Shown: positions 32,146-38,100 of the stretch, one piece after another
Numbering within the stretch: position 1 is the first letter of the stretch
Layout of the letters: each line of letters starts with the position of its first letter
Source: Escherichia phage ManiMatter_Bas94
Strand: one strand, 5' to 3'
DNA length: 64,000 bases
Sequence record: PQ850617.1
The notes under the pieces: generated by a model
Told to the model about the DNA's origin: nothing
Seen by the model: the letters and a program-made list of their open reading frames with translations, nothing else
Database searches by the model: none
Translations under genes and position numbers: made by a program

Positions 32146-32204
32146 ATTTTAATTTCCTTATTTAATTTGAAAGATTGTTGCTCTCTTTGAGCGGTTATGT
32201 ATAA

Positions 32205-32213
32205 TATACATTA
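32205..32213 (-). promoter_or_regulatory. TAATGTATA promoter motif upstream of SSB gene
   Basis: rc of tatacatta; CGTAATGTATATT closely matches the 6855 copy. Confidence 0.5.
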
Positions 32214-32276
32214 CGCTTATACCGATAAGAGTACTATATAATATAAGTGTCTTTGGTAGTAGATATAACACACTAG

Positions 32277-32285
32277 TAATGTATA
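32277..32285 (+). promoter_or_regulatory. Orphan + strand TAATGTATA motif in 420-bp intergenic region
   Basis: Exact motif on + strand with no + strand ORF downstream. Confidence 0.35.
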
Positions 32286-32384
32286 TATTGTATAGCTGAT
32301 AAAGTTATTGCAGGCTTGTATATTGGGCAATTCATAGAATCCCTTGCAAGTACCGAAGGGCAGGAGCCACCTGCGAGATAAAAA

Positions 32385-36612: not shown

Positions 36613-37035
36613 TTATTGGTAAAGTAAATCTGTAAATGCTTGGTTGTCTTCTACTACATCTAGCAAGGTTGCTTCGTTACTATAAGACCTAACCGTCCCG
36701 TTGACAACTGTCCGAGTAGGAGAGGGAGGTGGTGTATGGTTAGCTCTAGCTTCGCGAGGTTGCTCTCGTACTAAATGAGCCATAGCCATTTGGTTAGCGA
36801 CTTCTTCTCTTTCTCGAATAGCTCTCTGAATATAAGCTAGCTTCATGCCCCAAGCTTCTTCAAATTCTTGAGGATGTTTGTCACTGATAACCACATATTG
36901 ACGTTCAGGGATACCAGAGCGAATCTCTGATAAGAGTTCACAGAACAAATCCAGTTCGTGTTCAGTGAGATTCATTTCGATATCATCCCACTTGAGAACT
37001 AGGAAACGGTTTTGATATCTAGTCGGTAATGGCAT
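36613..37035 (-). CDS. Hypothetical protein
   Basis: 140-aa ORF upstream of polymerase. Confidence 0.4.
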   Translation of the reverse strand: MPLPTRYQNRFLVLKWDDIEMNLTEHELDLFCELLSEIRSGIPERQYVVISDKHPQEFEEAWGMKLAYIQRAIREREEVANQMAMAHLVREQPREARANHTPPPSPTRTVVNGTVRSYSNEATLLDVVEDNQAFTDLLYQ

Positions 37036-37038
37036 AGC

Positions 37039-37293
37039 TTAACCTTTAGGGAATGGGATGAGGTTTTCTACTGCAACACGGAATTCTTTCTCTACATCTT
37101 TATTCTTATAAGAAATGAATTTCCCATCAGCACCACGGAGGATTACGTTAGTGCGAGCTGTTTTTGGGTTATGACTGATTTGGTTTGCAATGAGACTAAT
37201 GTTGAGTTTAGTGTTGTGGTTATTGGTGAATTTCCACTTAGCCAGACGATTAGTCATTACATCAATGATAGTTACAGTTTTTACAATAGACAT
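37039..37293 (-). CDS. Hypothetical protein
   Basis: 84-aa ORF. Confidence 0.4.
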   Translation of the reverse strand: MSIVKTVTIIDVMTNRLAKWKFTNNHNTKLNISLIANQISHNPKTARTNVILRGADGKFISYKNKDVEKEFRVAVENLIPFPKG

Positions 37294-37326
37294 AGTTATT
37301 ACCTAAGAAGTTTAGTTTGGTTTATA

Positions 37327-37356
37327 TAAAAGAAAAGGCCACCCATTTGGGTAGCC
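37327..37356 (-). terminator. Rho-independent terminator
   Basis: On - strand GGCTACCC-AAAT-GGGTGGCC followed by TTTTCTTTTATATAAA. Confidence 0.6.
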
Positions 37357-37361
37357 TCATA

Positions 37362-37679
37362 TTACGATGAGCTTAAAGCTCCTTTGCGTGCTCCAGCTGC
37401 CTTCCCAGTTCGATCTCCACTTTTGCCGCCAGCTGAACGATTTCCGCTGACTGTTTCAACACGTAAGTTGCTTGACGCATTAGAGCCTCCTGACTTGATA
37501 GCTCGTTTGTGTCCAACGTCTTTACCTCTGACAGCAGCTTTTCCATCGCGCTTTTCAACGATGCGACGTGCACGGTGGCGCTGAGCATCTCCGCTCTTGC
37601 TACCAATTCCCGTTTCACCCCTTGCGATGGCGGTACGTCTTTCTTGTGCATAATCTCTCTTTCCTACATGGTCTGCCAT
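37362..37679 (-). CDS. Gly/Arg/Lys-rich disordered protein (KGG-repeat stress-protein-like)
   Basis: 105 aa; strong AAGGAG RBS 8 nt upstream; composition like YciG/KGG stress proteins; own promoter motif and terminator. Confidence 0.45.
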   Translation of the reverse strand: MADHVGKRDYAQERRTAIARGETGIGSKSGDAQRHRARRIVEKRDGKAAVRGKDVGHKRAIKSGGSNASSNLRVETVSGNRSAGGKSGDRTGKAAGARKGALSSS

Positions 37680-37715
37680 TTAGAACTCCTTAATATATCA
37701 GTGTACACTAAGGAG

Positions 37716-37724
37716 TATACATTA
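37716..37724 (-). promoter_or_regulatory. TAATGTATA promoter motif
   Basis: rc of tatacatta 37 nt upstream of ATG 37679. Confidence 0.5.
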
Positions 37725-37914
37725 TGAATGATGTTAAAACTCTGCTAAGTATTTAATATCAGAGGCATATACCTCATCAAAGGAAATAATTTCTCCATTG
37801 TAAAGAAGTTCTATCTTCAATATACCAGAGCATTTGGTGTCTTTAGAATCAACCCTGATAGAGAGCTTATCAACTATCTAAGCTTTAATCTCTTCTATCA
37901 TTAACTCTTGAGTG

Positions 37915-38100
37915 TTATTCACTCCACCCTCCCGGTGGTACAAAATCATCAGGAACGTCAATGATAGTAGGTTCTCCATTATTCATGCAGGTGTCTTCAT
38001 TGAACTCTTCACACTCAAAGCATGCTCGTTCGATATTTTTGTAGAAGTCGATGGTTGCTGAACCATCACCACAATCTCGGATAACTAGAGCTACTTTCAT
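37915..38100 (-). CDS. Small Cys-containing hypothetical protein
   Basis: 61-aa ORF overlapping phoH start. Confidence 0.35.
   Translation of the reverse strand: MKVALVIRDCGDGSATIDFYKNIERACFECEEFNEDTCMNNGEPTIIDVPDDFVPPGGWSE

Follow-up and report, generated by a model that had tools for sequence, protein, structure and literature searches.

Gene 58 and its reading frame

The DNA analysed here, a stretch of 64,000 nucleotides referred to below as the window, is that of a phiEco32-like Kuravirus, and the 2.3 kb at the locus of interest show 98% identity to Escherichia phages Bas92 and Bas93, against 88% to phiEco32. An open reading frame on the minus strand, running from 37679 to 37362, encodes a putative mini-HNH protein of 105 amino acids. 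It is the orthologue of phiEco32 gp58 (phi32_58), to which it is 94% identical and which is annotated as a "hypothetical protein", and it falls into PHROG 4590 (E = 3.3e-39), a protein family with no assigned function. A Gly/Lys/Arg-rich product of this length had been described in the initial annotation, and the composition bears this out, with 17 Gly, 15 Ala, 15 Arg, 12 Ser and 10 Lys residues and a net charge of +15.

An alternative frame of 92 amino acids, at 37373-37651, had been named as the other candidate for the expressed product. This frame exists, is open in close relatives, and is the one annotated for gene 58 in GenBank record PV018828.1 (phage YW01). Comparison of five close orthologues gave 29 variable columns, distributed 7/3/19 over codon positions 1, 2 and 3 of the 105-aa frame. 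The third positions of that frame are the second positions of the alternative one, where 19 of the 29 variable columns therefore fall. No PHROG matches the alternative frame, which carries 4-6 stops in the distant relatives L009, L020 and L024, whereas the 105-aa frame is kept down to ~45% identity. Because of the codon-position pattern of the substitutions, the missing PHROG match and the stops in distant relatives, the 105-aa frame is judged to be the gene, and gene 58 is, as far as its substitutions indicate, under purifying selection. An annotation ambiguity is thereby corrected, at least one GenBank record carrying the wrong frame.

The GC content of gene 58 (51%) is raised relative to the window (42%), and this is due to codon positions 1 and 2 only; GC3 is 0.34, against 0.33-0.37 for the neighbouring genes. 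Foreign origin on compositional grounds was considered and rejected on these values. A search of Rfam found no family in 37000-38100.

Transcription signals and a predicted hairpin over the ribosome-binding site

The sequence TAATGTATA, on the minus strand from 37724 to 37716, exactly matches the gp36 promoter element, gp36 being the phage's sigma factor, and corresponds to the phiEco32 middle promoter P58. Published work describes tAATGTAtA as a single-element promoter for host RNA polymerase carrying gp36 (PMC8948821, PMC4281155), places start sites 6-8 bp downstream of it (PMC8948821), centres AATGTA at -11.5 (PMC12276001), and lists phiEco32 genes 6, 13, 26, 40, 58 and 68 as the six whose gp36 promoter has been located by experiment (PMC8948821). 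Five exact copies of TAATGTATA occur in the window against 0.71 expected, a count reached in none of 100 shuffles, and when coordinates are mapped against the phiEco32 annotation four of the five sit at the positions of P13, P26, P40 and P58. The copy before gene 58 is orthologous to the phi32_58 promoter and invariant across all Kuravirus loci examined, and from this orthology we infer that it serves as a gp36 promoter here as well. Overlapping it is a weak sigma-70-like candidate, TTAGCA-16-CATAAT (37748-37721, minus strand), which is a consensus match only, at 9 of 12 positions. A sigma-70 promoter with a poor -35 has been placed at the equivalent position of SU10, between CDS 56 and 57 (PMC4281155).

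The Shine-Dalgarno sequence AAGGAG (37691-37686, minus strand), read from the sequence and conserved, lies 6 nt before the ATG. Both this site and a sequence motif belonging to the gene, now recognizable as TAATGTATA, had been pointed out at the outset, as had a terminator directly after the stop. Folding places an intrinsic terminator at 37358-37325 on the minus strand, beginning 4 nt past the stop and hence below 37362, just outside the segment first delimited; it consists of a stem-loop (37358-37335) followed by the T-run TTTTCTTTT. Its 10-bp stem has a predicted energy of -18.1 kcal/mol (z = -4.2), and none of 200 shuffles was as stable. The Kuraviruses share one and the same stem and differ in the loop (AAAT, AATA, ATTT, ATTTC), and unrelated sequences forming a hairpin and T-run stand at the equivalent place in phage 7-11 and in L009. 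Phage 7-11 has an unrelated sigma factor and promoter sequence. Its gene 69, which is preceded by a mapped late promoter, lies directly upstream of the gene 58 homologue gp068, and gp068 is again followed by a hairpin and T-run, of different sequence.

The promoter, ribosome-binding site and terminator of gene 58 are kept in every Kuravirus examined. These genomes show essentially no variation in the block ATAATGTATACTCCTTAGTGTACACTGATATATTAAGGAGTT, and in PAS59 too, where the polymerase is only ~80% identical, identity over the 42-nt block is 100%, though the upstream DNA and the first codons differ. In the model we propose, gp36, helped by gp79, would take over host RNA polymerase and direct a start about 7 nt downstream of TAATGTATA, near 37709 (37710-37708, minus strand), as predicted from the two published start-site rules. 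The product would be a short monocistronic mRNA of roughly 385 nt, ending at the terminator past the gene 58 stop.

The predicted start falls inside an inverted repeat. On the minus strand, a 5' arm at 37716-37704 (ACUCCUUAGUGUA), a loop at 37703-37698 and a 3' arm at 37697-37685 (UAUAUUAAGGAGU) fold into a hairpin with a 13-bp stem, in which the Shine-Dalgarno is paired in the predicted read-through RNA. Folding energies were -14.9 kcal/mol in 61 nt (z -2.6) and -25.1 kcal/mol in 101 nt (z -3.3), the latter with none of 200 shuffles as stable; for RNA beginning at 37708, the predicted folding is only -1.3 kcal/mol. With a start at ~37709, the seven 5'-arm bases facing AAGGAGU are missing from the RNA. 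Read-through RNA begun further upstream would carry the full hairpin with the Shine-Dalgarno hidden. As the P58 start is predicted to lie within the 5' arm, the P58 transcript would present a free AAGGAG, and good translation would be expected from it. Folding and the published start-site rule together suggest a gate in which the gp36-initiated transcript alone would have a free ribosome-binding site. This points to a simple translational switch coupled to a phage sigma-factor promoter. The hairpin has only two variants among the Kuraviruses, one G·U-compatible and the other in the loop, and because it is otherwise invariant it draws no support from covariation. A pattern scan of viral contigs for further variants of the untranslated region returned mostly chance matches and the same five Kuravirus genomes.

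A ribosome-binding-site hairpin combined with a later internal promoter has been described for the T4 genes I-TevI, I-TevII, I-TevIII, segB, soc, e and 49 and for the HNH gene mobE of phage Aeh1 (PMC2988022). The predicted arrangement at gene 58 resembles that of these genes in that the ribosome-binding site would be sequestered on read-through RNA and a later, phage-specific promoter would skip the inhibitory arm, and the regulated product is, as in the I-TevI type, a nuclease, here a putative one. Unlike those cases, gene 58 uses gp36 and a single-element promoter of the middle rather than the late class in phiEco32, and its gate is here predicted from sequence. No description of a gate on gene 58 was found in the literature searched, which did not include the primary phiEco32 transcription paper (Pavlova 2012), and the hairpin gate is apparently a new detail. 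The self-contained expression unit proposed in the initial annotation is upheld by the mapped gp36 promoter of phiEco32 gene 58 and by the conservation of the three signals, and as a reading it is largely already published. The locus combines a distinctive zinc-less HNH family with a probable translational gate in which the promoter is set inside the hairpin.

Relation of the gene 58 product to the HNH nucleases

The window protein has no Pfam match at E <= 1 and none in NCBIfam or PADLOC, and HMMER searches of the PDB sequences, with a profile and with the single sequence, gave only spurious matches (eL20, CaMK1D, EME2) and no HNH entry. As the PDB sequence searches found no HNH entry, the link to a known fold comes through Pfam matches in relatives and through Foldseek. 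Pfam HNH is matched at least weakly by 22 of 31 family members. One of them (P0045), at 22.7 bits, exceeds the gathering threshold of 21.4, and another (P0072) reaches 24.6 bits against HNH_3, 0.2 short of the threshold of 24.8. Two fusion proteins also exceed the Pfam HNH threshold (P0275, 24.9 bits; P0288, 26.3 bits), and in both the HNH segment is the very segment that matches the gp58 profile, over nearly its full length and with E ~1e-11. The fusion partners, in proteins of 350-960 aa, are without Pfam or PHROG annotation and therefore give no functional hint. Two relatives weakly match the HNH region of IscB in NCBIfam, and some family members already bear the labels "HNH endonuclease" or "McrA" in several sources. 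Since the window protein lies below every curated threshold and some relatives lie above, its membership among the HNH proteins is assigned by transitive homology.

Structure prediction agrees with this assignment. An AlphaFold2 model built from a 94-sequence alignment has a mean pLDDT of 73.4, rising to 81-85 over residues 31-80, with helices and a beta-hairpin; strands at 53-57 and 72-76 and a helix at 77-86 give a beta-beta-alpha topology. The protein had been taken for a disordered one, a view that the predicted fold contradicts. All 25 Foldseek matches in the PDB are nuclease domains, nearly all of them textbook HNH and none individually significant (best E 0.75 and 1.7), and they include the Gme HNH nickase (4H9D), colicins E7 and E9, pyocins, McrA and Cascade-HNH. 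The top match, 4H9D, aligns over 65 columns with an rmsd of 2.9 A and a TM of ~0.4; a first model had led to a similar set of PDB matches. Against BFVD, a library of viral structures, Foldseek returned significant matches to entries named 'HNHc domain containing protein', with E-values of 1.6e-4 and 3.5e-4.

The predicted beta-beta-alpha-Me (HNH) core spans residues 53-86 (37523-37422, minus strand), and its three signature residues are His57 (37511-37509), Asn71 (37469-37467) and Asn80 (37442-37440). Over 293 family sequences these are conserved in 292 of 292 aligned, 286 of 293 and 285 of 293, respectively, within the spacing DH-x6-GG-x5-NL-x8-N. The histidine is followed 14 residues on by the first asparagine and 9 residues further by the second, which we take to be the same spacing as in SpCas9 (H840/N854/N863). 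Cysteine is absent from the window protein, and the core lacks it in 270 of 293 members. The family is thus classed, on model and motif, as a zinc-less HNH (His-Me finger) family. It shares its predicted topology and His-Asn-Asn motif with the HNH/His-Me finger endonucleases (PF01844 HNH, PF13392 HNH_3, SMART HNHc) and differs from typical HNH proteins in a distinctive conserved N-terminal block, RDYxQERxTAxxRGETGxGSKSGDAxRHRARR, and from the zinc-finger type (McrA, Gme HNH, HK97 gp74) in having no CxxC/CxxH zinc pairs. Gme HNH is likewise a stand-alone, phage-associated protein of ~100 aa, and HK97 gp74 is a small stand-alone HNH protein associated with a phage terminase. Proteins of these two types bind zinc through cysteines and their genes adjoin terminase or portal genes, whereas the gene 58 family is zinc-less and adjoins the DNA polymerase.

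The C-terminal half of the protein would accordingly be a zinc-free HNH nuclease domain in which His57 acts as general base, Asn71 braces the hairpin and Asn80 is a metal ligand. The residue preceding the histidine complicates this picture. Asp (as in Cas9 and EndoVII) and His (as in the colicins) are the classical metal ligands just before the catalytic histidine, and family members have Asp at this position in 240 sequences, His in 12 and Gly in 26, the window protein being among the last (Gly56). The departure of the Kuravirus protein from the Asp of 240 of 292 relatives could have weakened or abolished activity; it could mean that the metal site has been lost and that the domain is a catalytically dead, HNH-like DNA binder or replication accessory factor. 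The strongly basic character of the protein, with its Arg-rich helix and Gly/Lys tail, would suit such a role, and the strong promoter of its own and perfect Shine-Dalgarno hint at an abundance that fits a structural DNA binder better than a nuclease. Yet the lineages with Gly56, at 33-55% identity to the window protein, keep His57 in 26 of 26, Asn71 in 25 of 26 and Asn80 in 25 of 26, which is hard to explain without catalysis. Most of them also have Asp or Glu three residues before the histidine, and this residue, Asp54 in the window protein, could act as a substitute. Moreover, I-PpoI and the Serratia nuclease use a single Asn as their only protein metal ligand. Loss of catalysis is therefore regarded as unlikely, though it deserves to be taken seriously. 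Given the retention of the three residues and the acidic residue at -3 in the Gly56 lineages, we lean towards nuclease activity having been retained in gp58 despite Gly56.

Distribution, genomic context and likely role

Within the genus the gene is universal. Searches returned 98 phage records for the gene 58 unit and likewise 98 for the neighbouring DNA polymerase fragment (at least 80% coverage), so that 98 of 98 Kuravirus records carry it. Published work points the same way, provided that CDS56 of SU10 is the gene 58 orthologue, as the placement of a middle promoter between CDS56 and 57 argues; this CDS is among those common to all five C3-morphotype phages compared (PMC4281155). Beyond the genus, the family occurs in ~246 phage records, covering Kuravirus, 7-11-like, Cronobacter, Proteus, Aeromonas, Vibrio and Pseudomonas LUZ24/tf-like phages, and always in the replication module. 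It is very large in metagenomes, comprising at least 7,690 clusters at 90% identity and at least 1,000 (1,004) at 50% identity.

The family-A DNA polymerase is the only neighbour common across lineages (13 of 21 loci). The order amidoligase, glutamine amidotransferase, γ-glutamyl cyclotransferase, primase-helicase, 3'-5' exonuclease, gene 58 and DNA polymerase is common to phiEco32 and tf. Among the LUZ24/tf-like phages the family gene (tf_29 in tf) has on one side the gene for the 3'-5' exonuclease ('DNA polymerase part I'), which it adjoins in every genome examined, and on the other that for the polymerase; elsewhere it lies near the polymerase. Universality, synteny, native GC3 and a promoter for the phage's own sigma factor together argue that gene 58 is a conserved core gene and not an insertion, in disagreement with the moron-like origin first proposed. 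It resembles the morons of temperate phages in being a single gene between its own promoter and terminator, and departs from them in being universal in its lineage and beyond, in its native codon-position composition, in its use of a virulent phage's own sigma factor and in its place in a syntenic module.

A probable reading of the locus is thus that gene 58 constitutes a gp36-driven, hairpin-gated unit for a zinc-free HNH nuclease of the replication module. The Arg-rich N-terminal helical part and the Gly/Lys tail would probably hold DNA, and the most likely chemistry is metal-dependent nicking or cutting of DNA within the replication and DNA-processing module. The gene has been passed down alongside the genes that phiEco32-like and LUZ24/tf-like podophages have in common for a split family-A DNA polymerase, a 3'-5' exonuclease and a primase-helicase, and from the gene neighbourhood the biological role of gp58 is inferred to be that of a replication-module nuclease. 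The best-supported statement of function is a metal-dependent protein of this module that would nick or cut DNA and whose production would have to wait for an active phage sigma factor. Its substrate could be host DNA or intermediates of phage replication or maturation. Both the fold and the probable chemistry are thereby proposed for a "hypothetical protein" that is core to the phiEco32-like and LUZ24-like podophages, both of which figure in phage therapy work.

The genomes of tf and Rembedalsseter carry strand-specific nicks, at TACT/RTGMC and WACTRTGAC respectively, and the responsible nickase has not been identified. It is conceivable, if quite improbable, that PHROG 4590 is a polymerase-associated nicking enzyme, which would introduce the TACT/RTGMC nicks in tf/LUZ24 phages and elsewhere make nicks for terminal-repeat duplication or recombination-dependent replication. 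Such a reading of PHROG 4590 would cover the short-terminal-repeat podophages generally, including the Kuraviruses, whose genome gives it no positive support.

Another possibility, to which we assign little weight, is that gene 58 encodes an HNH homing endonuclease of the free-standing kind, either active or domesticated only recently, aimed at the DNA polymerase region. Homing would account for a position between separately encoded exonuclease and polymerase genes, and a ribosome-binding-site hairpin with an internal promoter is the form of control typical of T4 homing endonuclease genes (PMC2988022). Against this, gene 58 is universal rather than sporadic, as the equal numbers of gene-unit and polymerase records and its presence in all five C3 phages attest (PMC4281155), and it is this universality that contradicts the homing reading. 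The purifying selection on the gene and its recurrence at the same syntenic place across phage families also speak against mobility, as does a length of ~100 aa with no separate DNA-recognition domain. A genuine homing gene at this locus looks different: 2 of the 98 records carry a separate HNH_3 gene of 164 aa, inserted into gene 58 at its 3' end.

The narrower proposal that the family supplies the site-specific nickase behind the strand-specific interruptions of tf/LUZ24-type phages, with similar action in the Kuraviruses, appears similarly doubtful. The constant presence of a family member beside the exonuclease gene of LUZ24/tf-like genomes speaks for it, as does the fact that the best structural neighbour in the PDB, 4H9D, is an HNH nicking enzyme. 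A domain of 100 aa, however, is unlikely to read 9 bp alone, and the window shows no enrichment of the tf motif, with 3 exact sites against 8.45 expected. Sites with one mismatch number 32 against 59.7 +/- 8.5; a depletion of the tf motif was nevertheless dropped as a candidate signal, the window falling in a 5.8% tail relative to permuted motifs of equal composition. A scan for strand-biased k-mers recovered the tf site (P = 5e-18), and neither in the window nor in phiEco32 did it turn up a word of similar strength. The best strand-biased word in the window is ATACCAGAG (8:0, P 4.5e-8, borderline after multiple testing), and a second borderline word is TTTAGACA (9:0). Most of the ATACCAGAG copies that phiEco32 has are orthologous to those of the window, two of whose sites are mutated in phiEco32, so they give no evidence of site-specific constraint. 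For the Kuraviruses the tf-nickase idea thus appears unsupported by the genome sequences, and for the tf-type phages the family is a candidate on weak present evidence.

There is next to no probability left for the gene's first description, as a disordered, KGG-type stress-like moron or with the 92-aa frame as its real product: the richness in Gly, Lys and Arg, the private promoter and terminator, and the open frame in close relatives fit it, and the folded HNH core, the core-gene status with native composition and the fate of the alternative frame outlined above do not. The string KGG is absent from the protein, Pfam KGG is not matched at E <= 1, and none of 31 relatives matches it either, so that the general stress proteins (PF10685; YciG, GsiB) share with gp58 a small size, richness in Gly and Lys and basic character, and differ from it in their KGG repeats and sequence, gp58 being predicted to be folded, with a catalytic motif and in a replication-module context. 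With no KGG match and a family that is HNH, a role as general stress protein is not borne out; binding to nucleic acid, the other function that had been suggested, is compatible with the findings.

Internal repeat of gp58 and gp58-like domains elsewhere

The 105-aa gp58 protein contains a quasi-repeat within its chain, reading G-S-K-S-G-D at residues 26-31 (window 37604-37587, minus strand) and G-G-K-S-G-D at residues 84-89 (37430-37413, minus strand). Across the gp58 family, hardly any variation is seen in either copy (G26, S29 and D31; G84, G85 and G88), and the two may be phosphate-contacting loops on either side of the predicted HNH core. Among the proteins matched by the family profile, P0192, P0205, P0208, P0225, P0268 and P0272 are 450-960 aa long and carry the gp58-like domain at their extreme C-terminus, while their N-terminal parts gave no match in Pfam or PHROGs. 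Comparison of the tf locus (L032) with the phiEco32 loci (L033/L034) revealed a long syntenic block common to phiEco32-like and tf/LUZ24-like podophages. The block holds genes for a COOH-NH2 ligase, an amidoligase, a glutamine amidotransferase, a gamma-glutamyl cyclotransferase, a primase-helicase, a 3'-5' exonuclease encoded separately, the gp58 family member and a DNA polymerase without exonuclease.

Variation at and upstream of gene 58

Two of the 98 phage records with the gene-58 unit, namely phage YW01 (PV018828.1; inserted gene at 649-1143 of locus L035, minus strand) and EK010 (NC_070981.1), carry an insertion at the gene-58 3' end: a gene that encodes an HNH_3-type homing endonuclease of 164 aa. 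The fine structure of the insertion was read in YW01 only, where the gene-58 stop is overlapped by the GTG start of the inserted gene (CAGTGA), the original gene 58 3' end is retained past the insertion, and the conserved terminator lies downstream of it. The GenBank annotation of PV018828.1 gives the alternative-frame ORF (MLKKEG...; L035 1148-1432, minus strand) rather than the conserved 105/106-aa gene-58 frame, which is likely a mis-annotation. Directly upstream of gene 58, the gp59 orthologue (window 37949-37734, minus strand) has CAG changed to TAG at about 37880 in comparison with both Bas92 and phiEco32, cutting the 71-aa ORF to 23 residues. The change could mark the gene as a pseudogene or the phage as an amber mutant, or it could stem from an error in sequencing.

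Strand-biased words and the P40 region

The scan for strand-biased k-mers yielded the 9-mer ATACCAGAG, with eight exact copies on the plus strand of the window (31629, 31841, 36911, 37822, 40330, 45698, 49456 and 51946) and none on the minus strand. The expectation is 0.48 for each strand, and the P value of 4.5e-8 is borderline once multiple testing is considered. The leftward-transcribed gene cluster holds all eight copies. In phiEco32 the word occurs six times on the plus strand and once on the minus strand; most of these copies are orthologous, and two window sites are mutated there. TTTAGACA is likewise biased 9:0 towards the plus strand (9182, 9728, 16744, 19701, 27641, 33456, 40542, 57357 and 57822, exact word), with copies in regions of both transcription directions (P ~1e-6, not significant after correction). 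The phiEco32 ratio is also 9:0, and the majority of these copies look orthologous by coordinate offset.

The intergenic region at window 32195-32294, expected to hold P40 (the gp36-sigma promoter of phiEco32 gene 40), contains exact TAATGTATA copies at 32205 (minus strand) and 32277 (plus strand), together with two one-mismatch copies on the plus strand (32195 and 32286). The plus-strand copies would be antisense relative to the adjoining genes.
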